A DNA stretch of 64,000 bases from a virus (lineage: Duplodnaviria; Caudoviricetes). The position numbers and the translations under genes were made by a program. Each line of letters starts with the position of its first letter. The stretch's first letter is position 1. Below the pieces are notes generated by a model, which was not told where the DNA came from, ran no database searches, and saw only the letters and a program-made list of their open reading frames with translations. Positions 2,931 to 38,355 of the stretch are shown piece by piece. The stretch lies in the IMG/VR virus record IMGVR_UViG_3300028832_000140, positions 3,153 to 67,152 of that record. One strand, 5' to 3'.

Positions 2931-3596
2931 ATGGAACCGACAGACGAACTTTACAGGCAATGCGAGGGCTTGCTTGCGTCACGCGTCGAGGACGTGCTTT
3001 CACGGAAACCTTACCTCGACAGGGACGAGCTCAAGTCAATCGCCAACTCTATCTTCTGCGACGCTTGCAGGAGTTTCGACGGCTCGAAGGGAGCCAAGTT
3101 CACCACATACCTCTACAAGAAGCTATCGAACCTCGAAGAGGAATCGAGGCGCGTGCTCGTACCGGACGGAAGCGGAGGATACACGGTCGCGCTGAATGTA
3201 GACGACTTTGGCGAAGACAATGAAGGCAACATGTTTAAGGTCCGGGTAGACAAAAGCGTAATCCTTCCCGCGTCCATAGCCTACGCCGAGCGCATGGCCG
3301 ACGACGGTCATTCGGAGCTGTTCAGCCATTGCGACAAGGTGCTGTCTGCCGATTCCGCGAAGGTAGTGGGCGACATCGTGGACGGCGAACTCGACCCGAA
3401 ATACAGGAAGGGAACGGCGGTACACGACAGGCGGTACTCCGGAAACTGCGTCATGAACGCTAGGCGCCTCTGGCTACGCAGGTACAGGAACATGGGCTGG
3501 ACCGTTGAACAGTGCGAGCGGACGCTAAAGGAAGTCCGGAGCATAGTCAATCAATACAGCCGTGGGCGACTGCCGTGCAGGCTGGTCCGCGTATAA
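2931..3596 (+). CDS. Phage sigma-factor-like transcription regulator (candidate late activator)
   Basis: ELKSIANSIFCDACRSFDGSKGAKFTTYLY resembles sigma70 region 2; first gene of the late block. Confidence 0.65.
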   Translation: MEPTDELYRQCEGLLASRVEDVLSRKPYLDRDELKSIANSIFCDACRSFDGSKGAKFTTYLYKKLSNLEEESRRVLVPDGSGGYTVALNVDDFGEDNEGNMFKVRVDKSVILPASIAYAERMADDGHSELFSHCDKVLSADSAKVVGDIVDGELDPKYRKGTAVHDRRYSGNCVMNARRLWLRRYRNMGWTVEQCERTLKEVRSIVNQYSRGRLPCRLVRV

Positions 3597-3615
3597 AAAA
3601 AAGGAAAAGGATTTT

Positions 3616-3861
3616 ATGGCAACGAAGAAGAAAACCGACAATGCCGAGAAGAAGGTGCCGAAGTCGAAGGTCGTGCGCTTCGAGGTCATCGCCTTCGACA
3701 ACGGAATGGAATTCCAGCTCCCAGTGCCGGTGGAGATGAAGGTCGGCGACCTTAACTCCAACGTCACCTTGCAGGTGGCGCAGGTGCTCGTGAAGGAAAT
3801 CAACCTTCTCGGCCACAAGTGCCTGTGGCGCCGTACCCCGAAGGAACGCCGCGGACGGTAG
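3616..3861 (+). CDS. Hypothetical protein
   Basis: ATG 3616 after AAGGAAAAGG, in-frame ORF. Confidence 0.6.
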   Translation: MATKKKTDNAEKKVPKSKVVRFEVIAFDNGMEFQLPVPVEMKVGDLNSNVTLQVAQVLVKEINLLGHKCLWRRTPKERRGR

Positions 3862-3913
3862 CGGCATAAGAATTTTTTTTTTTGACTCCGTAGTTGATTG
3901 CTCCATAGTAGTC

Positions 3914-3945
3914 GGCGGGCGTGCCATTTCTCCGGCGCGTCCGCC
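3914..3945 (+). terminator. GC hairpin, probable intrinsic terminator
   Basis: ggcgggcgtgcc / ggcgcgtccgcc stem followed by T-rich run. Confidence 0.5.
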
Positions 3946-3991
3946 GTTTCCGTTTTATTCATTGTGCGAAAACACATAGAGGACTTGTACC

Positions 3992-4732
3992 ATGGCAGAA
4001 TGGAATTCAGCACCGGCAAGCAGCACGGCCACGATCTTTAATGAAGGTGCGCCGTTGGCTAACGAAGCGCTCGTCGAAGAATGGCTCGACAACCAGCGCA
4101 GGCTGGAAGATTACGCACGCGTGGCCGAAGAAGAACGCGAATCCGACGCGATGCGTCACAAGGCGGCTCTCGGCAACATGCGCAATGGCTACCGTTCCAT
4201 GCTCCGCGAGAAGCTGAAGGACGGCGAACTGATGACCGACCGCGAGCTGTGGGCCCTCTCCGACGGCAACGAGGACGATTTCGAACGCCTGCGCATCGAG
4301 CGCGACCTAGACCTCGAAAAGGAACTGAAGGAACGCGAGCTCCGCCCGCACTCTCTCGAAGTCAAGGAACAGCCCTCGAAGCTGGAGGCATTCCTGCTGG
4401 GCTACGACCCGGAAGACGACGGCGAGGGCGAGGGGGTCAGCGTCGTGGACGCCGGTTACTTCGTCCCGGTCCTCGGCTCCGCCATGTACGGCAACAGCAT
4501 TCTCGACCAGGTGAAGCGCGGCGGCATGCCGGGCGCACTGGACGCCGCCATCGCGGTCCCGTTCTTCGGCCCGAGAATCAAGAGGGCTGGCAAGGCGTTC
4601 GTGAAGGGCTTCAAGGCCGGACGCGCACGCAGGTTCGCCGAAGGCCTGAAGGACAAGGACTACAAGACCCCGCTTGACTACGCCCGCACGCAGCTCTTCG
4701 ACAGGGAAGGAAATCTGGTGGGCGAGTGGTAG
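3992..4732 (+). CDS. Hypothetical virion-associated protein
   Basis: 246-aa ORF with RBS-like GAGGA; hydrophobic/basic C-terminal segment. Confidence 0.6.
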   Translation: MAEWNSAPASSTATIFNEGAPLANEALVEEWLDNQRRLEDYARVAEEERESDAMRHKAALGNMRNGYRSMLREKLKDGELMTDRELWALSDGNEDDFERLRIERDLDLEKELKERELRPHSLEVKEQPSKLEAFLLGYDPEDDGEGEGVSVVDAGYFVPVLGSAMYGNSILDQVKRGGMPGALDAAIAVPFFGPRIKRAGKAFVKGFKAGRARRFAEGLKDKDYKTPLDYARTQLFDREGNLVGEW

Positions 4733-4882
4733 CCGCCTAACTTACACACGCTTCCTTTATTCATAGTGCGACGGTACTCCGTACCGCCGTTTTCCCCGTT
4801 GTATGCGCTTGAACACGAGTGTTCCGGGGAGAACCCACGCCGCAGACGGGGCCGCGACAAAATTCCCGTCGGGAGATATAGA

Positions 4883-5401
4883 ATGAATGCACTAGAATAT
4901 GTCAGGAAGATTACGCAGAACGGCTCGCGATGCCGTTTCCCGTCCGAAAAGTCCAAGGAAGTGAAGGTAATCGAGGGTTCGTCGCCGTTCCAGAAGTTCG
5001 AGACGAAACTTTACCGCACCGAGCCGGACGAGGACGCCGAAATCAAGCTGGAGAACACCCTGCTGGAGCGCGTGACCGTCACGGCGCTCAATTCCACGAC
5101 ACCGCAGGCCTTCTACGACCACGTGTGCCTCATCCTGCCGAAGAAGGTGGGCAAGGTGACTATCGAGCGCGGCGAATACGACGAGGAGAAGTGGAAGCCG
5201 CTCCTACAGGAGCTCACCCTCGAGATAAGCAACGAGCTCGCGGCACTCGCGTTCAAGGAACGCAACTTCAACGGATCGCAGACCATCATCAAGATGCTAC
5301 AGGCGCGCATCAAGTCGTGGCAGAAGGCTGTCGTGGCAGAAGTCGGAGCCGAGAAGGACGAGGACGACGGACACATCCAGCTCAACATCAACATAGTGTA
5401 G
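4883..5401 (+). CDS. Putative terminase small subunit
   Basis: Directly upstream of TerL; ATG 4883 after GGGAG; helical protein ending IQLNINIV. Confidence 0.55.
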   Translation: MNALEYVRKITQNGSRCRFPSEKSKEVKVIEGSSPFQKFETKLYRTEPDEDAEIKLENTLLERVTVTALNSTTPQAFYDHVCLILPKKVGKVTIERGEYDEEKWKPLLQELTLEISNELAALAFKERNFNGSQTIIKMLQARIKSWQKAVVAEVGAEKDEDDGHIQLNINIV

Positions 5402-5424: not shown

Positions 5425-6699
5425 ATGCGGACAATCAATGTAGACATCAAGCCCGAACCATACCAGCGGTCCTTCTTCACGCAGAGGGAGGAACTTTCCG
5501 GCATATACGCAGGTCGAGGCATAGGCAAGTCGTGGATCATGCACCACAAGTCGAGCATCGCAGTCGCAAGCGGCGAGACAGTGCTATACCTCACGCCTAC
5601 CAACTCCCTTCTTCGAAAGCAGATGATGCCGAGAATGATTTCCATATTGCGTGGGTGGGGTCTTGACGCCATTTGGAACAAGTCGGACGAGACAATCACG
5701 ATTGCCGGTTCGGCAGGAATAATTTATGGAGCGTCATACCGCAACTATGACGAAGTTTGCCGTGGCGTAGACGGAGTGTCCACAGTATGCTACGACGAGC
5801 TTGCCAAGGCCGATGACTTGCAGATGCTCTTTGCGGCCGTCGCACCGACGATGCGAAACGCGAAGTTCCCTCCGCAGACCATTTACGCGACAACGCCGCG
5901 CAAGGGTAGCGAATGCGACCGTATGGTATTAAAGGGGGAACTTGGGCGCGTCGTGACGGGCGCCACCATCGACGACAATACCCACGTGACCGAGGCCGAG
6001 CGCGAGAACATGAAGCGGTTCCTGAAGGGCGACCTGTACCGCCAGGAAATCCAGGGGCAGATTCTCTCGGGCGACATCGAGAGCGCCGTATTCACATCGG
6101 ACTGCTTCGGGCGAATGTGGCAGCCGCCTAGGGGCCACGCCTCGATGGGCGTAGACTGCGCCGGTCACGGGCGAGACTACAACGTGTTCTACGTGATCGA
6201 CGACGTGCATATCCTCGAAAAGGTCAAGGTGCAGAAGGCCGACTCCTTCGAGATGAACAACATTGCCCGCGGACTCATACAGAAGTACAAGGTACGCCAG
6301 GTGACGGTGGACGGCACCGGCGGCTACGGGCAGGCCATATACGACTTCCTGAAGCTGGACCCGTCTCTACAGGTCTACTTCACGAACTTCGGGCAGGCCG
6401 CGGAAGACCACGAGCACTTCGCCAACGCCCGCGCCGAGATGTTCTTCCGTCTCGCCGAGGCGATGAAGCTGGAATTCCGTCTCGACGACGCGGAGACCGA
6501 GGAGGAGCTTCGCATCATCAGTTCGGACGTAAACGTTTCGGGAAAGTGCCTGCTGGTGAGCAAGGATGTCATCAAGAAGGTGCTCCAGCGCTCCCCGGAC
6601 AGCTCGGACGCCCTCGCGCTCGCGTACTACAACAGGCGCAAGATGTCCACGCTCGACGTGGCCGTGAACAGCATGTACAAGAAGATGCGCATGTTCTAG
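5425..6699 (+). CDS. terL: Terminase large subunit
   Basis: Walker A GRGIGKS, Walker B VCYDE, nuclease MGVDCAGHGRDY and SPDSSDALAL. Confidence 0.92.
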   Translation: MRTINVDIKPEPYQRSFFTQREELSGIYAGRGIGKSWIMHHKSSIAVASGETVLYLTPTNSLLRKQMMPRMISILRGWGLDAIWNKSDETITIAGSAGIIYGASYRNYDEVCRGVDGVSTVCYDELAKADDLQMLFAAVAPTMRNAKFPPQTIYATTPRKGSECDRMVLKGELGRVVTGATIDDNTHVTEAERENMKRFLKGDLYRQEIQGQILSGDIESAVFTSDCFGRMWQPPRGHASMGVDCAGHGRDYNVFYVIDDVHILEKVKVQKADSFEMNNIARGLIQKYKVRQVTVDGTGGYGQAIYDFLKLDPSLQVYFTNFGQAAEDHEHFANARAEMFFRLAEAMKLEFRLDDAETEEELRIISSDVNVSGKCLLVSKDVIKKVLQRSPDSSDALALAYYNRRKMSTLDVAVNSMYKKMRMF

Positions 6700-6736
6700 G
6701 GCGGTTTATTCATCGGTAAAAAGAGAGGTTTTCTAT

Positions 6737-6988
6737 ATGGCTACGAATACGAACGACCGCGGCGTGAGCGCGAGGCTACAGCAGGTTTCGCCGCTGACGA
6801 AGGAACTGTCGGACGTTGTGAACGCCGTGCAGGGGCTGTGGGGCCGTTCCACGGGTGGCGGGAGCGACACGACCTGGTGCATACTCGGGCGCGTCGTTTT
6901 CGTGCAGGGCAATACCGAAGAATGCCCCGTGAAGGTGATTGCGTGGAATAGCTGCGACGGCGGCGGTAGCTGGGGCATAGTCAAGTAA
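6737..6988 (+). CDS. Hypothetical protein
   Basis: ORF with GAGG RBS after a TTTATTCAT motif. Confidence 0.65.
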   Translation: MATNTNDRGVSARLQQVSPLTKELSDVVNAVQGLWGRSTGGGSDTTWCILGRVVFVQGNTEECPVKVIAWNSCDGGGSWGIVK

Positions 6989-8496: not shown

Positions 8497-8551
8497 CCTC
8501 CGTGTTTATTCATAGGGCGTACAACCAAGATTTTTAACACAGGAGTATAAA

Positions 8552-8722
8552 ATGACCGAAGAACTCGCACAGCTTTTCGAAGACCTCAAGGGCCGTTACG
8601 GCATCGCCGACGAAGACATGGCCGTGATTACGCAGGCCGTGGACACCACGGTTGCCGAAGCCGTCGCTGAAGCCACGGGCGAAGGCGTCCCGGCTGGCGA
8701 AGGCGAAGATTGGGAGGGCTAG
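8552..8722 (+). CDS. Small acidic protein, 56 aa (not in ORF track)
   Basis: AGGAG RBS, MTEELAQLFEDLKGRYG...GEDWEG*. Confidence 0.7.
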   Translation: MTEELAQLFEDLKGRYGIADEDMAVITQAVDTTVAEAVAEATGEGVPAGEGEDWEG

Positions 8723-8726
8723 TCCC

Positions 8727-9425
8727 ATGGCAGGTACATTCCTTGACCGCGTGATGCGCTACGGCGGCGTACAGAGACGCCCGCAGGCCGCACCGCGCGA
8801 CAACGGCGTCAACGTCCAGCGCCGCGGTTTCGTGCCGCAGGGCGGACGCATTCCGCAGGGATACGGACAGCAACGACAGGTGCAGCCGCAACCGCAGCCG
8901 GTGCAGCGCCAGTACACGCCCGAAGAAATCTACGCATACCGCATGGAGATGGCGAAGCGCGAATACGCACAGCGAGCCTACGAGGCCGAGATGCAGCGAC
9001 GCGCCGCATACGGCGTCCCGCAGGTGGGCGATGGCGCAGCAGCGCGACCGTACGAGTTCCTGATGGGCGAGGCCGACCGACTCGGCGCAAGCTCCGGCGC
9101 GATGCCCGCCGGTGGCGCACAGGTTCCGCAGGGCTACGCACAGCAGCCCGAACCGGAAGAACAGCCGCTTACCGAGGAGGAAGAGGCCCAGCTCCGAATC
9201 CGCCTGATGTACAACGACTACACCCGCGAATCCGCGGAACGCGGTGCACAGCCCGCCAGCTTCGAGGAGTTCGTGAACGCGCTCGTGGCACGTTCCCAGG
9301 CGCAGCAACAGCAGGCCGCTGAACCGCAAGCCGTGCAACAGCCGGAAGCGCAGCCCGCGGAAGTTCCGCAGGTAGCCGCCGCCGAGCCTACGGCCCCGAT
9401 GCCGCAGGGTGTCCAGACGGCATAG
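8727..9425 (+). CDS. Gln/Pro/Ala-rich protein, candidate capsid cargo
   Basis: Likely start ATG 8727 (MAGTFLDRVM); low complexity. Confidence 0.65.
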   Translation: MAGTFLDRVMRYGGVQRRPQAAPRDNGVNVQRRGFVPQGGRIPQGYGQQRQVQPQPQPVQRQYTPEEIYAYRMEMAKREYAQRAYEAEMQRRAAYGVPQVGDGAAARPYEFLMGEADRLGASSGAMPAGGAQVPQGYAQQPEPEEQPLTEEEEAQLRIRLMYNDYTRESAERGAQPASFEEFVNALVARSQAQQQQAAEPQAVQQPEAQPAEVPQVAAAEPTAPMPQGVQTA

Positions 9426-9530
9426 AATTTCCATTGTTCCTTGGGTTAATTGAAAAAACGGGATCCGGGGCTAACCACGCCCCGGTTTCTCGTTTTTATT
9501 CATAGTGCGATATAACATAAGGAGTAACCA

Positions 9531-10130
9531 ATGCCCACACCGAAGAAAGTAAACTTGCTCGACAAGATGTATCGAGCTTACAAGGACGCAAACCCGAACA
9601 CATCAAATGTTACAGACAGAATAAACACGATTTATCGCGAAGGTGGCTATAAAGGCCGCGTTGATCGTTACCTGTCTAACAAGTCCGTAAACGGGGCTAA
9701 AAAGGCAAAGCGCGAAATCGCACGGTTCCATGAAGACATTTTCCCGAATGAACTTGAAATATACTTTGACGAAAATCCGCGCTTACACAAGGACAATGAT
9801 TTCGGACGTGCTTTCGATGCAGTCGAGTCTCGCGTAGGTTATCTTGGTTCAAACGAAAAAGCGGCAAAGGAACGAATCGCTCGTGACTGGTTCGAAAAGA
9901 TTGATGGCGGAGAAAAACCTAGTGCTGGATGGAAAACAGAACTCAATGTAACGCCCATGCAGAGCGACCCGTACAGACTAAACGAACTTTCTAATAATGA
10001 CCTTTTCTACTTGTACGAAAGGACTGGACGTCCCGAATACGGACTTGAAATAAGCCGCCGTCATAACAAGATGGTGGAAGAAAACAAGAAGAATTTCCCG
10101 TACTTGTTTGGCGAACAGACCGAAAAGTAA
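9531..10130 (+). CDS. Hypothetical protein, candidate capsid cargo
   Basis: AAGGAG RBS; N-terminal NLLDK; AT-richer than flanks. Confidence 0.7.
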   Translation: MPTPKKVNLLDKMYRAYKDANPNTSNVTDRINTIYREGGYKGRVDRYLSNKSVNGAKKAKREIARFHEDIFPNELEIYFDENPRLHKDNDFGRAFDAVESRVGYLGSNEKAAKERIARDWFEKIDGGEKPSAGWKTELNVTPMQSDPYRLNELSNNDLFYLYERTGRPEYGLEISRRHNKMVEENKKNFPYLFGEQTEK

Positions 10131-10266
10131 TTACGGCGTTTACCTCCTCATAGCGCAATAGGCCCCTTTTCGGGGGCCTTCTTTTATTCATACCACGGAA
10201 GGCCGAGAACGAGCCTTTACTCACAACTTCAACGCAGCGCGTGGCGTACACGCGAGGAGATAGGTA

Positions 10267-11502
10267 ATGCCTAACGAAGCAATGAATCCGAACATGGACA
10301 TTGATTACATCCTGGCGTCCTACAAGGACGACGAGCCCGAAACGCAGACGGAACCCGGTGCATCCGAACCGGCTCCCGAAACGCAGACGGCTACGGCAGG
10401 TGACGGGGGCCACCCGGAACAGGCCGCAGGAGCTGAACCCGCAAAACAGGAACCCGCGAAAGCAGATGGGCCGCAGAATGACGCGAACGCCCCGGCGGGA
10501 CAACAGGCAGCGGGCGCCGAGCCGGACAAAGACAACAATGGCGGTGAACCCGCCAACGGTGACGGCGGTGTGGCTGGTACTGAAGGCAACGCAGGCGCGG
10601 CGTCGGAACCCGCGAAGGCGAAACCCAAGGTGCCGCGCAGGAATCCTCTTTCACGACTCGAGAAGGCCGAGTATTCCACCCGCAAGTGGAAGCAGAAGTA
10701 CCGCGAAATGCGCGAGAAGCGCGACGCCCTCCAGGCCGAACTAGAGAAGTACAGCAGGATCGACCCTACGCAGTTTCGCGACCCCGCAGACAGGGAGCGC
10801 TTCCTAGCCTGGCAGGCACGTACCGAGCAGAAGCTCAACGGCATGGACGAGGACCTGGAAGACATCGCGAACAGACAGTACGAACGCGAGTACGAATCCA
10901 AGGTGGAGGCATTCTACCCGGACGAGGACGCGCGTCACGCATTCGACGCACTTGACGAACACTACGGTTCCGTACTGGACGCCACGTGCCAGAAACTCGA
11001 CCCGGACAACATCATCCTTGACTTCTTGCAGAACTCCCCGTACGAGCCGGTCTTGAGGAACATCATCTACAAGAACGGCCCGTTGCAGGAACAGCTCTTC
11101 GCGAGGTTCGGCAGCCGCGCAATCGCCAACGCGACACGCGTAAACCTGCTGAACCAGCTCGAAAGCCAGGTGAAGGCGTTCTACGCGAGGGAACAGGGCG
11201 CACAGCCCGAACAGCAGGCGGCACCACGCACGGCACAGAACGGCGCGGCCACGCAGCAGAGACGGTTCACGCTCCCCCCGAAGAAGGACGCCCCCGCAGC
11301 CACGGCTACTGCACCGGTCGCAACGCAACCGGCAGTTCCCGCACAGGCCGTGGCACCGGCTCCCGCTCCAGCTCCCGCTCCGGCACAGCCGACGATGAGC
11401 AGCGGCGTGACGGGCTCGCTCACCCGAGGAAACGAGGGTGGCGGCGCAATCGACGAGAGCGCGGAAGCCAACGCACTCTTCAGGAAGATGTTCGGGTCGT
11501 AA
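10267..11502 (+). CDS. Capsid scaffolding protein
   Basis: Acidic/Pro-Ala N-terminus, coiled-coil middle, immediately upstream of capsid gene. Confidence 0.7.
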   Translation: MPNEAMNPNMDIDYILASYKDDEPETQTEPGASEPAPETQTATAGDGGHPEQAAGAEPAKQEPAKADGPQNDANAPAGQQAAGAEPDKDNNGGEPANGDGGVAGTEGNAGAASEPAKAKPKVPRRNPLSRLEKAEYSTRKWKQKYREMREKRDALQAELEKYSRIDPTQFRDPADRERFLAWQARTEQKLNGMDEDLEDIANRQYEREYESKVEAFYPDEDARHAFDALDEHYGSVLDATCQKLDPDNIILDFLQNSPYEPVLRNIIYKNGPLQEQLFARFGSRAIANATRVNLLNQLESQVKAFYAREQGAQPEQQAAPRTAQNGAATQQRRFTLPPKKDAPAATATAPVATQPAVPAQAVAPAPAPAPAPAQPTMSSGVTGSLTRGNEGGGAIDESAEANALFRKMFGS

Positions 11503-11562
11503 AGACAGACAAAACCCACACTTCAAATCGTGACGCTTTCATAGCGTCCAAAGGATGACATC

Positions 11563-12765
11563 ATGGCAAATTCCACCGTTCAGAACAAGAAGGTGATTTC
11601 CCTCGCCCTCGGCGCAGTCGCCGACGGCGCTTACCTCTATGCTGGTGCCGACCGCGCCATTGCCGCTGAAATGCAGGGCAAGGACAACGGCGACATCATC
11701 TACTACAAGACCACCAATCTCGGCCAGGCCGAAATCTCCGACGTGTCCATGGGCAACCCGGCCAACACCGGCCTCGCCTCCCTCGACATCGCGTCCGCAA
11801 CCCCGGTCAAGCACCGCCAGGTTCCGGTGAAGATCAAGGACGCCCGCGTGATGTACAACGTGAAGGCAATCGAAAAGCAGATTACCTCCCTCGGCAAGGA
11901 CATCGCCATGGGCAAGATCGGCCAGAAGCTCGCCAAGAAGGCCGTCAAGAACGTAATCGCCGAAGACATCCTCACCATCGGCAACATCTTCGTCGGCAAC
12001 GACTTCGCCGCCTTCCAGAAGGCCGGCGCATTCCTCAAGGCCTACGTCGATGGCACCCTCTACGGCTTCATGGACTGGAACGTCTGGGGCGACTTGACCG
12101 CCAAGGGTCAGCAGGCCGTGCCGTGCGCACTCGCCGAACCCCGCTTCGGCCGCAACCTCCGCGGTTCCTGGTCCCTCATCGACCAGCTCCGCACCATCCC
12201 GGACATCCCGCAGTTCAAGATCGGTGATGTCGCTTCCGCCAAGGTGAAGGCCTCCGTCGCCACCTCCGCAAGCACCGTCGCCCTCACCCTGACCGCAGGC
12301 GATTCTCCGCTCGCAGTCGGTGACAAGGTTGTCGTGGCCGTTCCGGGCATCAACGCCCTCGACGTGAACGACAACGACACCGGCGTCGCCAACAGCTTCG
12401 TCGTGACCCTCGAAGCCTCCGTCGCCGCTTCCGCAACCACGGACGTGACCGTGACCTTCGACCCGCAGCTCGTCGTCATCCCGGCATCCATCGCCGCCAA
12501 CGCCTCCGTCGAAGTCAAGGGTGCCGCCGGTACTTACGGCGCAACCATCATTCGTGCAGAAGGCGCACAGGCCTTCGGTACGATGAACCAGTGCGACTGC
12601 GAAGGCGCCAAGTACGAAAAGAGCTCCATCGACGGCCTGACCGTGCACGCCAACTCCGGCGAGAACATCGGCGCCCTGTCTACCGACAGCCGCTACGACA
12701 TGATTCTCTGCTCGAAGCTCGTGGAACCGCGTGCCGCCGCCTTGGTGCTCTACAAGATCGCCTAA
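11563..12765 (+). CDS. Major capsid protein (P22 coat-like)
   Basis: 400 aa, strongest C-ending codon bias in the window, follows scaffold, strong terminator downstream. Confidence 0.8.
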   Translation: MANSTVQNKKVISLALGAVADGAYLYAGADRAIAAEMQGKDNGDIIYYKTTNLGQAEISDVSMGNPANTGLASLDIASATPVKHRQVPVKIKDARVMYNVKAIEKQITSLGKDIAMGKIGQKLAKKAVKNVIAEDILTIGNIFVGNDFAAFQKAGAFLKAYVDGTLYGFMDWNVWGDLTAKGQQAVPCALAEPRFGRNLRGSWSLIDQLRTIPDIPQFKIGDVASAKVKASVATSASTVALTLTAGDSPLAVGDKVVVAVPGINALDVNDNDTGVANSFVVTLEASVAASATTDVTVTFDPQLVVIPASIAANASVEVKGAAGTYGATIIRAEGAQAFGTMNQCDCEGAKYEKSSIDGLTVHANSGENIGALSTDSRYDMILCSKLVEPRAAALVLYKIA

Positions 12766-12811
12766 CCACGGCGATACAAGGAATTCTAGGTTGGCATAAC
12801 CTATTATCCCC

Positions 12812-12854
12812 AAAAAAAAGGCCCCGTCACCTAACCGTGGCGGGGTCCTTTTTT
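12812..12854. terminator. Bidirectional intrinsic terminator
   Basis: A8-ggccccgtcac-loop-gtggcggggtcc-T6. Confidence 0.8.
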
Positions 12855-12876
12855 ATATGGTCGGCGAAATTATCGT

Positions 12877-13050
12877 TTACTTGTATCTTGAGTCCGGCTT
12901 CTGCGCGAGGTATTCTTTAAGTAGGTAGCGAATGAACGAACCCGTGTCGTCTGTAATAGTAGTTGGAACACCACTGTTTATGGCTTCGATTTTGGCTCGC
13001 TCCAGCATAGTAACGTCAAGCGTTATACAGAACTTAGTTTCCAATGTCAT
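12877..13050 (-). CDS. Small ribbon-helix-helix-like protein, 57 aa (not in ORF track)
   Basis: MTLETKFCITLDVTMLERAKIEA...SFIRYLLKEYL; upstream TTTACT-17-TATATT on the minus strand. Confidence 0.6.
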   Translation of the reverse strand: MTLETKFCITLDVTMLERAKIEAINSGVPTTITDDTGSFIRYLLKEYLAQKPDSRYK

Positions 13051-13193
13051 AGAGAATTACATCCTGCAACATTATTTTTGAATATTTATGTGAAATATAA
13101 ATAGTAAATGTTTTAAAGTAAGTAGAACTAAAAAAAATGATTGGTTTATTCATACCATGGAAGTTTAACATTTTCACGGACTTTTTTTTGTAT

Positions 13194-14678: not shown

Positions 14679-14783
14679 TTTAATACTTCTTTATTCATTG
14701 CCCGACATATTTATCCCTCCTGATACGAGGCCCTTTTATTCATAGGTCGTAACGAACCTATCGGATAGAAGGGCTTTTTTGTC

Positions 14784-26131: not shown

Positions 26132-26659
26132 ATGTCAACAGAAAAATCAAGAAATGACTCGAAAACGGGGCGCTTTTACGGAAAGTTGCCACCGGAAATG
26201 CTCGCGGACCTGGATTTCCTGCTCATAAAGCTGCGCAGGATCAACCGCAAGGTGCTCAAGCAGAAGACAATCAAGCGTACGGAGATAAGGGCCTTGCCCG
26301 ACGGGGAATACCTCCGCCTGTGGGGATACCTGCGCCACTGCTGTTCGCTCGTCACCACGTGGCCGAACGTAAGGAGGGCCATATCGGCCATCGCCGACAA
26401 GAGTTCAAGAACGGAGGACGACGTCCGCGACGAGTGCATAGACGCAATCACGACGCACGTGTACACGTACGCCTGGCGCAAGTACAGGCATTCCGAAGAC
26501 TGCGGGCTCGTATTCACGACGGCGGAATTCGGCTACAAGGGCTGGATAACGTCGCAGAACCTGTACCACGACGGGGTGGAATTCTCCCGCGAACTCTTCG
26601 CGTCCGACAATCCGTCTTGCGGAGGGAAGGTGTCGTCCGTATCCGCCGAAAGGTCGTAG
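26132..26659 (+). CDS. Hypothetical protein, possibly a second sigma-like regulator
   Basis: Basic N-terminus; EDDVRDECIDAITTHVYTYAWRKY weakly sigma-region-2-like. Confidence 0.45.
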   Translation: MSTEKSRNDSKTGRFYGKLPPEMLADLDFLLIKLRRINRKVLKQKTIKRTEIRALPDGEYLRLWGYLRHCCSLVTTWPNVRRAISAIADKSSRTEDDVRDECIDAITTHVYTYAWRKYRHSEDCGLVFTTAEFGYKGWITSQNLYHDGVEFSRELFASDNPSCGGKVSSVSAERS

Positions 26660-26709
26660 CCCGTCGCGGTTTTATTCATAGTGGGAAAATTAACGAGGAT
26701 TCCCACAAG

Positions 26710-31467: not shown

Positions 31468-31908
31468 ATGCAGGAACTGCACAACGTAAAGGGCTCTCGC
31501 AAGAACGGCATCTACGTGGACTGCAAGCAGCTCGCGATGAGGCTCTACAAGCTCTCGTTCACGATGGCGAAGCGCGACCGCGTAATCTTCGGCGACCGCA
31601 TGCTGTCACTCGCCCTCGACTGCGTTGAGGACTTCGCTTTCGCGTACCAGTATCCCGAAAGGAGGGTGGAATATACCGAAAGGCTCATATTCGACTTCGG
31701 CAGGCTCAAGGAGCTTATGCGGATGGCGTGTGACCTCAAGATTATCTCGACGAAGCACTACGTGACGATTTTCGAGTACGTGGAGCGTATCGACGAAGGC
31801 GTAGGGAAATACCGCAAGTACGGAATTTCCAAGGTTCAGGCAGCCGCGGGTTCAAACGACGGCCGTGGCTCTGGTAACGAAAGACAAGAGGAGGCGACGG
31901 TATCATAA
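31468..31908 (+). CDS. avd: DGR accessory protein Avd (four-helix bundle)
   Basis: 146-aa helical protein between VR and TR; IFGDRM..ALD..RLKELMRMACDLKIIS. Confidence 0.85.
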   Translation: MQELHNVKGSRKNGIYVDCKQLAMRLYKLSFTMAKRDRVIFGDRMLSLALDCVEDFAFAYQYPERRVEYTERLIFDFGRLKELMRMACDLKIISTKHYVTIFEYVERIDEGVGKYRKYGISKVQAAAGSNDGRGSGNERQEEATVS

Positions 31909-31969
31909 ATACCAGTATCGGCAGTGCGCCTTATCCCGTGCATCCCCGGTTGTTCCGGTAGGGTTGTCT

Positions 31970-32084
31970 CGCGTTGGGTCCCTGCGCGCTATAACAACAA
32001 TAACGCGTGGTACATGAACAACAACGGCAACTTCAACAACAACAACTTGAACAACAATAATCGGGCGTGTGCGGTGGCGAACTT
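31970..32084 (+). ncRNA. DGR template repeat (TR)
   Basis: 17 AAY triplets in the VR frame, 37 adenines; lies between avd and RT. Confidence 0.97.
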
Positions 32085-32105
32085 GATTTCCCGTTACCGC
32101 TGGAG

Positions 32106-33296
32106 ATGGCTATGGTAAGACTGGAAGACTTGACAGAAGCGTATTTCATGGCCCGCGCAAACAAGCGCAGGTCAAACGATTCCGTCCGTTTCGAGGTTGG
32201 CTTCGAGACAGGTCTTGTCCGGCTCATGGACGACATCAACCGCCGTACATACACGGCCAGCTCCAACTACGCCTTCGTCGTGTTCTCCCCCAAGCCGAGG
32301 GAGATTTTCGCCACGGAGATGCGGAACAGGGTGGTACACCACTACCTCGACTGGAGACTGCGTCCGATATACGAGAAGGTTTTCAGCGACAGGACCTTCA
32401 ACAACCGCAAGGGCATGGGACTGCACAAGGCGATAGCGACTTTCCGCGAGGACGTGCGCGAGATGACCGCAGACTACACGCAGGACGCGTGGATAGCCCA
32501 CCTAGACATCAAGGGGTACTTCCCGAACGCAGACGTGGAAATCGCGCTCAAGCAGCAGCTCGACCTAATAGATACGTACTATGATGGAGAGGACAAGGAA
32601 GACCTCAAGTACATGATGACGGTCTGCATGCGCGCCGATCCTGCGAGACACTGCGACGTTTTCGTCCCGAGGACGAACTGGTCTGCCATCGCTCCCGAAA
32701 AGAGCCTATTCAACAAGCCGGTAGGCGTAGGCGGCGCGATAGGTTTCCTCTGCTGGCAGAACGCCATGGGGAACTACATCAACGATGTCGTGAAGTGGCT
32801 ACAGGGACACGAATTCCTGCGCATCGTTGTGTTCGTCGACGACATCTACGTGGTAACGTCCGACAAGGCAAGGTTCCTCGCCTTGATGCCAGTATTGCGT
32901 TCCAAGCTGGCCGCGCTTAATGTTCGCTTCAACGAGGGCAAGTTCTACATGCAGCACTACTCCAAGGGCGTGATGATGCTGGGTACGGTACTCAAGTTCC
33001 ACAGGCAGTACGCCAACAACGGGACCGTAAAGCGCGGATTCCGCAGGCTACGCGATTGGGCGGGTGTAGGCAGGATTAGAAAGGCCGACATTAACCGCAT
33101 GCTGTGTTCTCTGAATACATACTGCGGGATATTCAAGGGACACAACAACGGAAGGCACCTTGAGTTATTCATGGAGGAAGGATTGCGTAGGCTAGGCAAG
33201 TACGTGAAATGGAACGAGTCCAAGAAATGTTTCAACCTTGTCAGGAACTTTAACGACTATTTGATTTCCCGATATGCGGGCAGGAAGGCGGTGTAG
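32106..33296 (+). CDS. DGR reverse transcriptase
   Basis: KPREIFA..RNRVVHH, LDIKGYF, KSLF, IGFLCWQ, FVDD; start ATG 32106 or 32112. Confidence 0.93.
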   Translation: MAMVRLEDLTEAYFMARANKRRSNDSVRFEVGFETGLVRLMDDINRRTYTASSNYAFVVFSPKPREIFATEMRNRVVHHYLDWRLRPIYEKVFSDRTFNNRKGMGLHKAIATFREDVREMTADYTQDAWIAHLDIKGYFPNADVEIALKQQLDLIDTYYDGEDKEDLKYMMTVCMRADPARHCDVFVPRTNWSAIAPEKSLFNKPVGVGGAIGFLCWQNAMGNYINDVVKWLQGHEFLRIVVFVDDIYVVTSDKARFLALMPVLRSKLAALNVRFNEGKFYMQHYSKGVMMLGTVLKFHRQYANNGTVKRGFRRLRDWAGVGRIRKADINRMLCSLNTYCGIFKGHNNGRHLELFMEEGLRRLGKYVKWNESKKCFNLVRNFNDYLISRYAGRKAV

Positions 33297-33302: not shown

Positions 33303-35924
33303 ATGTCAGAGACTTACGACAACAAGGCTGTGAACGGCAAGGAACTTGCGGAGCAGACGCTCGTGGGCGTTGCCTCCGAAATCAAGCGGGAAGGATACGT
33401 CAGCGCCGCCGCCTTCAACGACGTGGTGGCTCGCCTCGTGGCCTTGGAAAAGGCGATGGCAGAACAGAACCTCGGAGAACGCACCGCCGACTCAATCGAC
33501 TCGCAATCGCTCAAGGTGGGCGGCACCGACGTCAAGACGAAGCAGGCCGCCAAGAGCAACCCTTCCGCAAGCAGCGGCAGTGCCACCACGTTCGTCGATA
33601 CGCTTTCGCAGAACGAAAACGGCGAAATTACGGCCACTCGCAGGGCCATGAAGCTGTACACGGGTACGGGCTCCAATACGGACGCACCGATGACGCAGAA
33701 GGCCGTCAAGGAAGCCCTTGATACTAAGGCCCCGATTGCATCGCCTACGTTCACGGGAACCCCTGCCGCACCTACCGCAAGCGGTTCTACGGACACCACG
33801 CAAATCGCGACTACGGCTTTCGTGCATGACGCCATCGAGAACGACCTCAAGAAGGCCGCCGATGTTTCGGGCATGGGCAACGACGACACCCACGCCTACA
33901 GCGGCGAGGCAGTCAGCATGGCCATTTCGTCGGCAGTCAGCGGTAACGTTGGCGGTTTCCTCGGCAACATGACCGTAGCGCAGATGAACGCCTACACTAA
34001 CCCGAAGATGGGCGACAACGCAATCGTGACGGACACGGGAACGATTACGGTAGGCTCCGAGTCGTGCGTTATTACTACGGCGCCATCCGAGGTGCGCTGG
34101 ACTACAAGCGGTTCGTGGAAGGTGTCTTCCGCTGGCTACGTGCGCGACACGCAGGTGGCGACTACGAGCGTCCTCGGCCTCGTCAAGTTGAACACGTCCA
34201 ACGGCGGCGTGGAACTTAACTCAAGCAACCAGATGGTCGTTCACGGGTGGAGTACCAAGCAGGACTCGTTGCCGTATGCAAACGGCAAGTATGGGATCGA
34301 CATCAGTGGAAGTTCAAGCTCGGCCTCTGTTGCAGGAGAACTGGAGAAGGTGTCGCTCGGACAGGTTGACGAACTGCCTGTTAGCCTCATCGTAAATTCA
34401 AATTTCAAGGCCGGGACGTTCCTTTTGAAAGGTGACGATTACGGAGGACAGCCTTACGTGTTCGGTAACGTTACGATTCCGAACAACCAATGGTATCGTT
34501 TTACCGTAAGCGGTCAAACGTCTACCGACTGCGTGATTACGCTTGAACCTTGTACTGGTGGTTCATCGTCCCCGTTCAACATCTTCAAGATTCTTGTAGA
34601 CAACGGGAGTTCAAGAACCGACAAGGTGATGAAGGTGGTGCGCGTGCCTTACGAGTCTACCTCGTCTGCCGTCGGTGATTCGTCAAAGCCGGTATACGTA
34701 GACGAAAGCGGAGAAATCAAGGAATGCAATCCGTCTAGCATGTCAGTCGGCTACGCTTCGGCCGCAGAGAGTGGGTCCGCATTGGCGCAGGCAATAGCCC
34801 CGGATGCCGACGTGGCTCTGATTGTATATGGCGATGCTACGTACTCGTCCGTGAAGGCACTGTACAACGCAGGGAAGAAACTCTACCTCGTGACTGGCGG
34901 CAACATCCAGCCTAGCGGAAAGTTTGAGTACCGCATACCCCTTACGCTAATTACCTACGATGCGAACAACGAGGTCAACGCCTTCTATTTCGAGTATGCG
35001 CAGGATGACCGAAACGGGGCATCGGAAGTATCGTCCATTGCCGTGTATCGTCTTGATTCTACCGGGTGGACATCTACGGCAAAGGCTGTCGGTTATGCCA
35101 CGAACGCTGGACATTCGTCTACAAGCGGTACGGCAACCAACGCCACGAACGACCACGGCGGCGCGAAGATAAGGGACGCGTACATATCTAATGTAGTCGA
35201 CAGCGTCTACGATGCGACTAACCCTCCTCAATACATTTATTCGTTTGACGGCGTCAGCGTCGCCGCGAACCAGGACGGATTCAGGGTGGCTACGCTGTCG
35301 AGGTACAAGATACCTTTCCCTCGCGTGTACTTCCACACGCGAAGTGAACTGACGGTGCGAAATCCGACAGACCAGTCTTCGACCACTCCTGATAATTGCG
35401 CATACATTATCAATAACTCAACCGCAAGTTTAGGATACAATGGTTTTACTTGTCTCGGTCATGAAAAACCAATAGGATACGGTCAAAAATATTATGGTGT
35501 CTGCTCGACAGATTTAATTGTTGGGTTGACAGAAATTGATTTCGATTTCAGCGCGACGTGGGTCAATCACACCATGGAACAGCAAAATTTCCCTCCGTCA
35601 TTCATGCAGATAGTGTTTGCCGCAACGTGGGACGAGAACGATTTTCAGCAATATCCTAATTGTGGCTATGGATTCGCACTAAATCATGAGAACATCTTCA
35701 CTACGACTAGAGGAAGCTACAGATTCGAATATGGAACTTCGGGCTTTAATAATGACATGCCAGTTATGGGACATGTGAGGATGGTCGGTGTTATTGGCAA
35801 TGCAGGATTAAGGCGTCTTTTTATCGGTGCGTTCCAACCGCGTTCAGATGCGTACATAAAAATGAAAATTTCGAACGTCAGAGTACGTGGAAATCTTGGC
35901 GCTATGGAAGCAAGCGTAATGTAA
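33303..35924 (+). CDS. Long tail fibre protein
   Basis: APIASPTFTGTPAAPT..DTTQIATTAFV fibre motif; modules shared with 28256 and 29825. Confidence 0.8.
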   Translation: MSETYDNKAVNGKELAEQTLVGVASEIKREGYVSAAAFNDVVARLVALEKAMAEQNLGERTADSIDSQSLKVGGTDVKTKQAAKSNPSASSGSATTFVDTLSQNENGEITATRRAMKLYTGTGSNTDAPMTQKAVKEALDTKAPIASPTFTGTPAAPTASGSTDTTQIATTAFVHDAIENDLKKAADVSGMGNDDTHAYSGEAVSMAISSAVSGNVGGFLGNMTVAQMNAYTNPKMGDNAIVTDTGTITVGSESCVITTAPSEVRWTTSGSWKVSSAGYVRDTQVATTSVLGLVKLNTSNGGVELNSSNQMVVHGWSTKQDSLPYANGKYGIDISGSSSSASVAGELEKVSLGQVDELPVSLIVNSNFKAGTFLLKGDDYGGQPYVFGNVTIPNNQWYRFTVSGQTSTDCVITLEPCTGGSSSPFNIFKILVDNGSSRTDKVMKVVRVPYESTSSAVGDSSKPVYVDESGEIKECNPSSMSVGYASAAESGSALAQAIAPDADVALIVYGDATYSSVKALYNAGKKLYLVTGGNIQPSGKFEYRIPLTLITYDANNEVNAFYFEYAQDDRNGASEVSSIAVYRLDSTGWTSTAKAVGYATNAGHSSTSGTATNATNDHGGAKIRDAYISNVVDSVYDATNPPQYIYSFDGVSVAANQDGFRVATLSRYKIPFPRVYFHTRSELTVRNPTDQSSTTPDNCAYIINNSTASLGYNGFTCLGHEKPIGYGQKYYGVCSTDLIVGLTEIDFDFSATWVNHTMEQQNFPPSFMQIVFAATWDENDFQQYPNCGYGFALNHENIFTTTRGSYRFEYGTSGFNNDMPVMGHVRMVGVIGNAGLRRLFIGAFQPRSDAYIKMKISNVRVRGNLGAMEASVM

Positions 35925-36476: not shown

Positions 36477-37144
36477 TTAACTTCCTACAGATAGCCATCA
36501 CCAACGAGTGCAACTTTTCCTGCTGGCATTGCCCGATGGGGAAGTGGCGCAACTCGGAGAAACCGAAGTTCCCGTTGAACAACGGCGAACTTTTGCCTTT
36601 CCTTGAACGCTACGTAGACCCGAAAAAGTGGGTAATCGAACTCACGGGCGGTGAGCCGACCTTGTATGAGGGCTTTGACGAACTGCTTGAGTGGATGTCT
36701 ACGCACGGCTATTACACGCTTGTCAAGACCAACGGAAGCAACCCTGTCAAACACTACGATAACGTGAAGGTATGCGCCGCGTTCCACCGACTTGAACAGC
36801 CTCCAAGATACTTTGACGAGTACCTAATCGTTGACAAGATTCAGCGGGAGGAGAAGGAAGCCTACTGCAAGGAGCGCGGGATACCGTACAAGGTAATTGG
36901 CTACAACAAGGAGAACCCGGACGACGCCACGTGCGGATTCACGTTCGTCGCGTTCGTAAACCCTGCCGGACACAACCTCTCATGCCCTGCCGACAGACCC
37001 GCGCAGCTCGTGGAAGGTTGCGACGATTACGGACGCATCAACCACCGCGAGTTCTTTTACGGGCGGTGCTGCAAGACTTGCAAGGCGGCGGTAGACGCGT
37101 GGCGCTTCCTGCCGGATGAAATCAAGGCAAGGGCTACGCAATAG
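36473..37144 (+). CDS. Radical SAM protein
   Basis: CNFSCWHC, ELTGGEPTL, TNGS; C-terminal Cys. Confidence 0.85.
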   Translation: MINFLQIAITNECNFSCWHCPMGKWRNSEKPKFPLNNGELLPFLERYVDPKKWVIELTGGEPTLYEGFDELLEWMSTHGYYTLVKTNGSNPVKHYDNVKVCAAFHRLEQPPRYFDEYLIVDKIQREEKEAYCKERGIPYKVIGYNKENPDDATCGFTFVAFVNPAGHNLSCPADRPAQLVEGCDDYGRINHREFFYGRCCKTCKAAVDAWRFLPDEIKARATQ

Positions 37145-37206
37145 TTTATTCATAAAACGATGACGATGTTTGATGGGAAATTGATTGATTATTGTAAACC
37201 GCCTAT

Positions 37207-37602
37207 TTGGAGGGGGAGTTGACATTGGACATCACGGGTATAGACATGGCCGCGCTCGGCACGGCACTGGGTTCAATAGGCGGCACGATTGCAGCCATTA
37301 TCAAGGCCGTAAAGTCGGGTAACGAGGCCGCGGCCGCGAAAGCCGAGACCGAGACAATACAGGCTGAACGAAAGGCGCAGGCAGAGCTCCGCGACAGGCA
37401 GGTGCAGGAACTGAATACAAAGTGCGCCGTGCTTGAAAACAGGATTTCCGCGAACGACAAGCGCCTTGACGAGGGAACGGCCAATTTCAAGCAGCTTGAT
37501 GCGAAAATCGACGATTTGCGAAATACCGTCGATAACAAGATCGACGGGTTGAGTTCATCTGTAAACCAACTGATCGGTGAAATCCGCGCCGGGAGGAAGT
37601 AG
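37207..37602 (+). CDS. Holin-like membrane protein
   Basis: One N-terminal TM segment then coiled coil; start TTG 37207 or ATG 37246. Confidence 0.5.
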   Translation: MEGELTLDITGIDMAALGTALGSIGGTIAAIIKAVKSGNEAAAAKAETETIQAERKAQAELRDRQVQELNTKCAVLENRISANDKRLDEGTANFKQLDAKIDDLRNTVDNKIDGLSSSVNQLIGEIRAGRK

Positions 37603-37605
37603 CGT

Positions 37606-37698
37606 ATGAAGGCTCTTGCAATAGTGGTTTTCATTCTTGTCGTAATCCTTCTTGGATTCTTTCTTTTTGACGACGACGACTGGACAAATATCAGCTAG
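37606..37698 (+). CDS. 30-aa membrane peptide (not in ORF track)
   Basis: MKALAIVVFILVVILLGFFLFDDDDWTNIS after GGAGG. Confidence 0.5.
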   Translation: MKALAIVVFILVVILLGFFLFDDDDWTNIS

Positions 37699-37712
37699 AA
37701 CGGAGGACAAGG

Positions 37713-38204
37713 ATGTCTGTAACTGTTACGAAGGCGTGGACGGCGAAGCCGTTCGTGTGGCATACTGACAAGGACAGGACGCACGCGCTAGTGTGGAGTT
37801 CTACTCTGTATCTTGAAATCCGTGAAGTCAACGGAAAGAAGCGTAACGTGATGGTTCACTTCAAGGGACGAGATGACGAGGCCGGTTCCAAGTGCTACCG
37901 CTGCGACGGCCTATCCGTGCCGAAAATGTTCCGTTGGTTTCTGCCGGATTGGGACGAAAAGAACCAGCTCTACAACCTCGCCGGCGCACTTCACGACTGG
38001 CTCTACGCATCGGAGGGTAACTACTGCATGTTCAGCCGTTCGGAATGTGACGACATGTTCCGCGGCATACTGCGAGAGTCCGGTCAGAGCCGTTTCAAGG
38101 CCGGAACGGCGGACTACATGGTCGGCCTGTTCGCAGGTAACGGACATCACTGGGGAAACGACAACTACAATATCGCGGACACGGTGAAGATGGAGTTCGT
38201 GTAG
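37713..38204 (+). CDS. DUF1353-like protein
   Basis: DGLSVP..AGALHDWLY..R.ECDDMF pattern. Confidence 0.7.
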   Translation: MSVTVTKAWTAKPFVWHTDKDRTHALVWSSTLYLEIREVNGKKRNVMVHFKGRDDEAGSKCYRCDGLSVPKMFRWFLPDWDEKNQLYNLAGALHDWLYASEGNYCMFSRSECDDMFRGILRESGQSRFKAGTADYMVGLFAGNGHHWGNDNYNIADTVKMEFV

Positions 38205-38355
38205 CCCGTTATTTATTCATTCGGACGAAGGGATTTGACGCCATGTCGCGGAAAGAAGGGATCCGCGGCGTGAGCTTTGAAAAAAGACATTAGAGGGCCG
38301 ACTCGGGAAACACCCGATAGGCATTACATAACACCAATCGAAAGGAGATAATAAG

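Follow-up and report, generated by a model that had tools for sequence, protein, structure and literature searches.

Organization of the plus-strand block

We analysed 64,000 nucleotides (nt) of viral DNA (the window), namely bases 3153–67152 of the 67,152-base IMG/VR virus record IMGVR_UViG_3300028832_000140, which CheckV rates as complete; its G+C content is ~55%. A block of plus-strand genes spans ~2900 to 39460 and comprises particle, packaging and lysis genes. It is led by a sigma-like gene at 2931–3596, and a nine-letter word, TTTATTCAT, recurs along it. An earlier reading of the sequence alone (the original prediction) had proposed that this word is a late promoter recognized by the product of the sigma-like gene. 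The sigma operon, the copies of the word and the terminator-like hairpins are arranged as follows (aa, amino acids; ORF, open reading frame).

2884–2912, plus strand: sigma-70-type promoter-like site, TTGACA, 17 nt, TATATT (11 of 12 letters match; best of the scan)
2931–3596, plus strand: sigma-like gene P0001, 221 aa, with sigma region 2 at residues ~4–81 and a C-terminal domain of no recognised kind
3616–3861, plus strand: 81-aa ORF P0048, between the sigma-like gene and the terminator at 3913–3946; absent from the gene list of the original prediction
3913–3946, plus strand: strong terminator-like hairpin of 13 pairs (11 G-C) that closes the sigma operon, 7 nt ahead of copy 1
3954–3962, plus strand: motif copy 1, 29 nt ahead of gene 3992–4732
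4756–4764, plus strand: motif copy 2, followed by a 118-nt leader, gene 4883–5401 and the large terminase gene
6705–6713, plus strand: motif copy 3, 5 nt behind the large terminase stop and 23 nt ahead of gene 6737–6988
8505–8513, plus strand: motif copy 4, 8 nt behind a stop and 38 nt ahead of the start at 8552, with no hairpin before it
9495–9503, plus strand: motif copy 5, behind hairpin 9465–9485 and 27 nt ahead of gene 9531–10130
10183–10191, plus strand: motif copy 6, behind hairpin 10160–10179 and 75 nt ahead of the two-gene unit 10267–12765
12820–12847, plus strand: terminator-like hairpin closing the 10267–12765 unit
13145–13153, plus strand: motif copy 7, behind a 290-nt AT-rich spacer and 40 nt ahead of gene 13194–14678
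14690–14698, plus strand: motif copy 8, upstream half of a tandem pair ahead of the portal gene
14735–14743, plus strand: motif copy 9, 40 nt ahead of the portal gene 14784–16694
17287–17295, plus strand: motif copy 10, overlapped by hairpin 17257–17287 and 29 nt ahead of gene 17325–17891
20374–20382, plus strand: motif copy 11, 5 nt behind the head-closure stop and 31 nt ahead of the ATG at 20414
22002–22010, plus strand: motif copy 12, behind hairpin 21974–21998 and 23 nt ahead of gene 22034–23683
26671–26679, plus strand: motif copy 13, 30 nt ahead of the ATG at 26710
37145–37153, plus strand: motif copy 14, abutting the stop that ends at 37144 and 53 nt ahead of ORF 37207–37602
38212–38220, plus strand: motif copy 15, 7 nt behind a stop and 135 nt ahead of ORF 38356–38874
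39430–39461, plus strand: strong terminator-like hairpin of 14 pairs where the plus-strand block ends

Abundance and placement of the nine-letter word

Exhaustive counting agrees with the original prediction in finding 15 exact copies of TTTATTCAT in the window, all on the plus strand, and none on the minus strand. Across the whole 67,152-base record the count is likewise 15 forward and 0 reverse, while the same word read backwards, used as a control, is found on neither strand (0 and 0). Dinucleotide-preserving shuffles contained 0.39 copies on average and 3 at most, with none of 100 shuffles reaching 15, and a third-order Markov model expects 0.31 copies, making TTTATTCAT the top over-represented 9-mer of the genome. 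Copies with one mismatch number 12 (8 on the plus strand and 4 on the minus strand), set against ~9.3 expected when exact and one-mismatch matches are taken together; given this lack of excess, the 9-mer behaves as an all-or-none word. Chance or a composition artefact as the source of the 15 copies is ruled out by the shuffles and by the control, mismatch and Markov counts.

Placement was assessed with a gene model of 38 plus-strand ORFs, each checked for start, stop and frame. As had been claimed, the copies are intergenic, with 0 of 15 falling inside a gene. The word is found in 14 of the 18 intergenic gaps of at least 25 nt, twice in one of them, and at none of the 19 shorter or overlapping junctions; the gaps of this size that lack it are 11502–11563, 26047–26132 and two within a diversity-generating retroelement. 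Ten of the 15 copies lie 23–40 nt ahead of a start codon, in keeping with the 22–41 nt given as usual by the original prediction, and the others lie at 53, 75, 85 (the upstream tandem copy), 118 and 135 nt. A stop codon precedes eight copies by 0–11 nt and a ninth by 23 nt. Both minus-strand arms, described as early arms in the original prediction, are free of the word, also as predicted.

Upstream of the motif, information content stays below ~0.3 bit at each position from −45 to −2, both for the 15 sites and for 31 non-redundant sites drawn from this genome and its relatives, so that the claimed absence of a shared −35 partner holds; only a preference for T is seen at −1. Downstream, the consensus reads A(+9) G(+10) ... 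G(+14) A A A when the first T is counted as 0, that is A-G-n-n-n-G-A-A-A, and is weaker than the 9-mer itself. The conserved extension that had been described downstream is thus real, and it is wider than was noted, reaching the G-A-A-A at 14–17. Conservation is confined to −1 to +17, which rules out a longer repeat or the end of a mobile element. The 36 nt behind the 31 sites have a mean fold energy of −4.2 kcal/mol versus −3.4 for shuffles, with strong hairpins at few sites, and a general 5′ hairpin behind the motif is not supported by these energies.

Terminators, cassettes and mosaic junctions

The five strongest motif-adjacent sites that combine a plus-strand hairpin with a T-run (3913–3946, 9465–9485, 10160–10179, 17257–17287 and 21974–21998) end 0–9 nt before copies 1, 5, 6, 10 and 12, and the remaining strongest sites of the block lie behind the 10267–12765 unit and at the block end. 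A hairpin and T-run directly upstream are therefore found at 5 of the 15 copies; the other 10 follow a stop or a spacer with no strong hairpin. Relatives keep hairpins at the motif-adjacent places with other stem sequences, as the metagenome contig L031 does at the 3913–3946 site. Copy 13 heads a 10.5-kb unit with no further copies, within which lie the retroelement and the tail fibre gene.

Blocks of homology with relatives (introduced below) start or end at copies of the word, at 3972, 8505, 9493–9513, 10156–10160, 14689 and 38212; homology with two of them, G001 and G003:C95, starts exactly at copy 15 (38212). Some blocks end at gene boundaries that lack the motif (6987, 21081 and 23678). 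In one DNA run there are also variants in which 9513 is joined to 10160 and 13489 to 14689, each of these joins coinciding with copies. The block ends and the joined variants together indicate that the motif often marks mosaic junctions. These junctions are likely a by-product of shared sequence at the heads of the units, with no clear excess over other gene boundaries. The earlier description of terminator–promoter junctions that make genes independent cassettes is supported by the five copies behind strong hairpin–T-run sites and by the homology blocks that break at copies.

Two non-coding stretches adjoin copies of the word. The leader at 4765–4882 has a hairpin and T-run directly behind copy 2, and the hairpin is kept with changed stem letters in G003:C95 and L030–L032; the leader looks like an attenuator ahead of the small gene and the large terminase gene. 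Between copy 7 and a terminator consisting of an A-run, a hairpin and a T-run (12809–12854), which looks bidirectional, lies the 290-nt AT-rich non-coding spacer (12855–13144).

Conservation of the word in relatives

Five relatives carry a sigma homologue 58–64% identical to that of the window: G001, a 42-kb IMG/VR record; the metagenome contigs L030, L031 and L032; and G003:C95, a 64.7-kb contig from yak omasum in a metagenome-assembled genome (MAG) labelled Fibrobacter sp. TTTATTCAT is present in all five, on the sigma strand only. Sigma-strand versus other-strand counts are 10 versus 0 in G001 and 14 versus 0 in G003:C95, where one of the 14 is the reverse complement of the ribosome site and start codon of an opposite gene and was counted as chance. 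In L030, L031 and L032 the word occurs 2, 5 and 6 times, in each case downstream of the sigma gene, and it is absent from the 10-kb flanks upstream of that gene in L030 and L031. Across the six sequences, 51 sites fall into 31 groups by flank similarity, and the 9-mer is invariant in 51 of 51, even where both flanks have diverged. At the counterparts of copy 11 in G001 and G003:C95 the 9-mer is kept with both flanks different, and the tandem pair 14690/14735 is kept in both genomes.

Five further sequences with sigma homologues only 26–44% identical (G002, G004, G005, L020 and L021) have no copy on the sigma strand. The co-occurrence of motif and sigma gene that had been proposed as a check is thus seen in 5 of 5 relatives with a close sigma and 0 of 5 with a distant one; the latter have nothing but the sigma gene in common with the window and are therefore of little use for judging co-variation. 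Two of these phages, G002 and G004, whose sigma homologues are 26–30% identical to that of the window, have repeated words of their own. G004 has a plus-strand word, GCTATATTG, often behind TTTTGCCC, and TTTTGCCC-N4-GCTATATTG occurs five times on its sigma strand; G002 has TGTAAGCAAAATGTAAG iterons at ~24.6, 46.3 and 55.7 kb, one set lying just upstream of its sigma homologue. The repeated words of G002 and G004 could not be tied to their sigma genes.

In the part of the 3.5-Mb MAG outside C95 (~3.4 Mb) the word occurs 32 times, on both strands, versus 15 for the backwards control, and these both-strand copies rule out a host promoter as the identity of the motif. Fibrobacter is a bin label and not a shown host, since C95 is phage-like end to end and the sigma gene is found in only 1 of 151 genomes of that family. 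G003:C95 also contains a tandem array with a 9-nt unit, AAGGCGTTC, in ~25–30 copies in register, which is absent from the window. Matches of two longer patterns, in at least 113 and at least 118 stretches (28–46% G+C, 1–4 copies each), were discarded as chance; the known relative was not among the matches listed. The literature search found no description of the motif or of the sigma-like family, the 9-mer being, among the matches listed, a primer or unrelated.

The sigma-like protein and its operon

Residues 4–64 of P0001 match phrog_351, a sigma factor family, at 1.6e-8. Against PF04542 (Sigma70_r2) the protein scores 16.5 bits (E 4.3e-4; cut-off 24), the sole such match in the genome; the Pfam scan at E 0.01 assigned it to no family. 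When a profile of 23 homologues was compared with PDB, 57 of the 58 matches at E 1 were sigma factors (best 4.5e-5), and hhalign aligned the family profile with Escherichia coli FliA at a probability of 66% (E 5.4e-5), pairing residues 4–81 of P0001 with residues 13–93 of FliA, an alignment that takes in the whole of region 2. Among wider relatives of P0001, 9 of 10 match PF04542, three of them at or above the cut-off, and Sigma70_r2 is found in 21 of the 30 ESM Atlas clusters nearest to it. The only models listed by NCBIfam at E 1 were FliA/WhiG and SigI, all of them weak matches far below the family cut-offs (15.5 versus 189.6 bits).

Region 4 (PF04545 or PF08281) was matched neither by P0001 at E 10 nor by 10 relatives at E 0.01. 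No alignment of the C-terminus with FliA was obtained, and an ESM Atlas search with residues 120–221 gave scores of at most 0.85. A region 2 with no detectable region 4 is an architecture suited to promoters that have no −35 box, such as those of T4; region 4 is missing from T4 gp55 as well, which is nonetheless classed in the sigma-70 family. Searches for homology to gp55 gave three weak matches, none of them T4-like, by tblastn against 50,697 phage records, an hhalign probability of 0.6% for the family profile with gp55, and a BLASTP E of 27. Homologues of P0001 are few: eight clusters by word search, and ~40 clusters, formed at 50% identity, at E 0.001 among 1.8 billion representatives. Judged by these sequence comparisons, P0001 is a divergent relative of sigma factors with a region 2, and represents a new family with no detectable relation to gp55. 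The claim that a sigma-like gene heads the block is accordingly sound in that the 2931–3596 product is sigma-like via region 2 and its gene leads the plus-strand block. Segment-by-segment identities of the protein gave no sign of special conservation of the region 2 segment.

The promoter-like site at 2884–2912, a putative early or host-read promoter of the operon, ends 19 nt ahead of the sigma start, and its hexamers and spacing are kept in G001 and G003:C95 while the nearby sequence differs. The divergent region between the ParB-like and sigma genes (2670–2930) is ~200 nt longer than in these two relatives, which do not keep a 63-aa ORF at 2737–2928. A direct repeat, TGACA-N5-TGACA, overlaps the −35 box of the sigma operon promoter and could be an operator.

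The second gene of the operon, P0048, is kept in 4 of the 4 relatives examined, with database homologues 89–94% identical compared with ~62% for the sigma-like protein. The product has a basic tail at either end and is matched by nothing in Pfam, PHROG or PDB. By analogy with gp33, which accompanies gp55, P0048 may be a partner or co-factor of the sigma-like protein.

RNA contigs at the copies

RNA data were available as assembled contigs from three bovine metatranscriptome runs of two studies, derived from a ~92%-identical relative of the window phage. Contigs of this kind do not reveal strand, true ends or level, and they may also stop where strains branch. At copy 1, contigs start at 3979 and 3984, 17 and 22 nt behind the motif. 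At copy 6, contigs of ~2.6 kb run from 10210, 10220 and 10260 to 12811–12827, starting 19–69 nt behind the motif and ending, in all three runs, in the terminator region of the 10267–12765 unit; in one run the contig ends in letters that we take to be Illumina adapter. This unit is the most abundant RNA, at word depths of 66, 233 and 29 in contrast to 0–30 in neighbouring parts, and across copy 6 the depth rises from 0–4 to 29–233. Depth this uneven speaks for RNA as the source of the contigs, as opposed to DNA contamination.

At copy 2, contigs extend upstream of 4837 by 48, 30 and 34 letters. The 30 extra letters shown are identical to L030 and L031, in which the distance from the motif end to that point is 48 nt; as this equals the 48 letters of the longest contig, that contig seems to begin at the first base behind the motif. 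Upstream contigs of two runs end ~8 nt ahead of the same copy. Taken together, contig starts lie 0–69 nt behind the motif end at three copies (1, 2 and 6), where none of these contigs reaches upstream of the motif and a DNA run is continuous. The contigs weakly support units that begin just behind the motif. Copy 4 (8505) is bridged by RNA contigs (X23), and parts of the late block have no RNA contig (e.g. 13760–20400 in X21), which is no evidence of silence.

Proposed mechanism and alternative explanations

We consider it probable that TTTATTCAT is a late promoter consisting of a −10-like element only and read by the phage sigma-like protein. Host RNA polymerase with its primary sigma factor would transcribe a short operon, composed of the sigma-like gene (2931–3596) and the 81-aa gene (3616–3861), from the TTGACA-17-TATATT promoter at 2884–2912 and would stop at the terminator at 3913–3946. 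The sigma-like protein, alone or with the 81-aa protein, would then bind host core polymerase and direct it to the 15 copies of an AT-rich −10-like element working without a −35 box. Each copy would head one to ~ten particle, packaging or lysis genes, and many units would close with a hairpin, its T-run passing into the T's of the copy that follows, giving a chain of terminator–promoter cassettes. The start site is expected between the first and about the seventh base behind the motif, and the purine-rich stretch 5–8 nt downstream, with nothing conserved upstream, is as expected near a start site. The late-promoter interpretation of the original prediction is partly supported, by the strand-specific intergenic element that heads transcription units and by the RNA contigs of two studies that start shortly behind three copies; the sigma-like protein is the most likely reader.

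Several observations weigh against this promoter reading. The bridging of copy 4 is compatible with read-through and does not speak for initiation at that copy, the DNA run too is interrupted near copies 6 and 8, and late timing is an assumption drawn from the genes present. In sigma-70-type promoters the −10 element usually ends 6–8 nt ahead of the start; at copy 2 the longest contig seems to begin at the first base behind the motif (some downstream hairpins include that base), so the start may lie nearer to the motif than a −10 element allows. A start abutting the motif would mean either that the −10-like part is the first six letters only or that the geometry is unusual. As to the protein, the Pfam region 2 score is under the curated cut-off (16.5 versus 24 bits), the C-terminal half matches nothing, and the region 2 segment (residues 41–80) is only 60–65% identical among phages with an identical 9-mer, which weakens the assignment of specificity to the sigma-like protein alone. 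Set beside the 89–94% identity of P0048, this conservation points at least equally to the 81-aa protein, which is a candidate for promoter specificity on an equal footing with the sigma-like protein.

The same evidence bears on what else the word could be. Long late precursors might be cut by a sequence-specific endoribonuclease, of the phage or the host, at or just behind UUUAUUCAU, so that the upstream fragments would be protected by hairpins at their ends and the downstream ones would start right behind the word. The ends at copy 2 are what such cutting predicts, with the longest contig apparently starting at the first base behind the motif and upstream contigs of two runs ending ~8 nt before it, and so are the GC-rich hairpins directly upstream of at least five copies; copy 4, being bridged by RNA contigs, shows that the word can be transcribed, and strand specificity and absence from coding sequence suit an RNA signal equally well. 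We nevertheless regard processing as unlikely. The hairpins bear T-runs typical of intrinsic terminators, at which a precursor would stop ahead of the site, and no nuclease with specificity for the 9-mer was recognised among the scanned proteins. Processing would also leave the sigma-like gene with no other over-represented word to read, while the purine-rich stretch 5–8 nt downstream and an AT-rich 9-mer in 55% G+C DNA resemble a melting and start region, and the 8- to 60-fold jump in depth at copy 6 is easier to explain as initiation. The word might instead be a promoter with a different reader, either the 81-aa protein, in the role of an activator or appropriator of the host holoenzyme, or an unrecognised phage polymerase. 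The higher identity of the 81-aa protein (89–94% versus ~62% for sigma) in phages with the identical word is in its favour, a start right behind the word is nearer to the promoters of single-subunit or non-canonical phage polymerases than to a −10 element, and most large late proteins have no family match. We hold this to be decidedly improbable in view of the missing DNA-binding or polymerase-binding signature in the 81-aa protein, the absence of any RNA polymerase family among the window proteins scanned, and the sigma-like gene being the sole recognisable transcription-machinery gene by the block and accompanying the motif in all five close relatives.

Least credible of all is a recombination or cassette-junction site, integron-like or based on short homology, with no role in transcription. 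The homology blocks that start or end at the six places given above and the DNA-run variants joined at copies (9513–10160 and 13489–14689) agree with it, and the tandem pair 14690/14735 resembles a junction scar. The cassettes, however, include the essential terminase, portal and head-closure genes; block ends also occur at the motif-free boundaries 6987, 21081 and 23678, with no clear excess at copies; no dedicated recombinase stands beside the array, the sole integrase (41446–42702) being of the ordinary arm-binding tyrosine type; and the fixed spacing to start codons is left unexplained. An effect on recombination may well be secondary to the promoter role. A joint reading, to which we assign a small but real chance, is that the 9-mer is not a −10 element, that RNA begins at the first base behind it and that the word doubles as a junction for cassette swaps. 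It could take either of two forms: the region 2-only protein and its 81-aa partner would place polymerase so that the start abuts the word, a geometry unknown for sigma-70 relatives, or the word would be the target of a sequence-specific endoribonuclease that cuts the late transcript into hairpin-capped cassettes.

Other features of the phage genome

Library scans of the proteins and family searches identified the following genes outside the sigma operon.

5425–6699, plus strand: large terminase (library scan)
14784–16694, plus strand: P22-like portal (library scan)
18830–20368, plus strand: head-closure protein (library scan)
31468–31908, plus strand: Avd of the diversity-generating retroelement (phrog_3206, 1.2e-10)
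32067–33296, plus strand: reverse transcriptase of the diversity-generating retroelement (PF00078; phrog_1423, 1.9e-41)
33303–35924, plus strand: tail fibre (library scan)
41446–42702, minus-strand arm: tyrosine integrase, ordinary arm-binding type, the only integrase

Most large late proteins had no family match in these scans. The minus-strand arms encode the tyrosine integrase, a ParB-like protein, RtcB, a RecE-like exonuclease, a methyltransferase and similar genes. The source phage is a temperate, uncultivated rumen phage with a P22-like portal and belongs to an undescribed group; GenBank held no phage resembling the window in 9.3 kb of DNA, the portal protein or sigma, and close DNA is present in bovine gut metagenomes.

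The diversity-generating retroelement (31468–33296) is flanked by a 460-aa gene upstream and the tail fibre gene downstream. Behind copy 4, at 8552–9425, the frame switches from a 56-aa ORF (8552–8722) to a 257-aa ORF (8652–9425); relatives are longer by ~260 bases here, and RNA contigs skip slightly at 8730–8742 and 8808–8882. This genome may carry a disrupted or rearranged form of the gene. The two-gene unit 10267–12765 has no family match, and its first gene contains a length-variable linker rich in proline, alanine and glutamate near 11353–11386 (one DNA run). The last two motif copies head small products, encoded at 37207–37602, 37606–37698 and 38356–38874, that are membrane-like, glycine-rich or coiled-coil; that of ORF 38356–38874 is glycine-rich with a membrane-like N-terminus. 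The region 37207–39410 is possibly a lysis module, although no endolysin family was recognised in it. The sole tRNA of the window is a tRNA-Thr (anticodon TGT) on the minus strand at 52467–52541 (ARAGORN; Rfam 66.4 bits at 52468–52540), and this is also the only Rfam match in the window, the late block having none.

Comparison with known systems and significance

In the excerpted account of PMC7892883, T4 late promoters have a −10-like element with no −35 conservation and are read by gp55, whose homology domain is region 2 only. The window shares with the T4 gp55/gp33/gp45 system a single AT-rich −10-like element repeated ahead of late genes with no conserved −35, and a small second protein is encoded beside the sigma-like gene here, much as gp33 functionally accompanies gp55. 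The sigma-like protein differs from gp55 in having no sequence relation to it, the motif differs from the T4 late word, and the window phage is temperate, has no recognised clamp and may differ in start-site distance. In phiEco32-like phages, according to the sections consulted of PMC4331800, a phage sigma reads a 9-bp word. In phiEco32 and 7-11 that word is, in the same sections, short, near-invariant, over-represented and intergenic, upstream of middle and late genes, as in the window; these phages differ in having another word, in belonging to an unrelated group (lytic podoviruses of enterobacteria) and in carrying an anti-sigma, which did not turn up in the window phage.

RinA/ArpU-type activators of temperate phages of Gram-positive bacteria are likewise encoded by a small regulator gene directly upstream of the terminase genes and switch on the late operon (excerpts of PMC3152322). 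The gene position is the shared feature; RinA and ArpU act at one regulated promoter ahead of terS, in contrast to the 15 copies in the window phage, and P0001 was not matched by RinA/ArpU family models (Pfam at E 0.01; NCBIfam at E 1, FliA/WhiG and SigI only). FliA/WhiG (sigma-28) are the best sequence relatives of residues 4–81 of P0001 and differ in that FliA regions 3 and 4 have no aligning counterpart and the window promoter has no −35 element. In principle the strategy is that of T4 gp55 or phiEco32, carried out by a new protein family in a temperate phage group so far undescribed.

This finding leaves unchanged what is known in principle about late transcription in phages. If the promoter reading is true, it would add a family of region 2-only sigma-like proteins unrelated to gp55 and put a compact orthogonal promoter/factor pair on offer. 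Transcription units would be mapped in a genome where most genes lack known function, and the coincidence of promoter copies with mosaic breakpoints provides a testable case of modular exchange that keeps transcription units intact. An uncultivated rumen phage group would thereby gain a complete and simple switch, made of a host-type promoter, a sigma-like gene with a small partner, an invariant 9-bp word and defined terminators.

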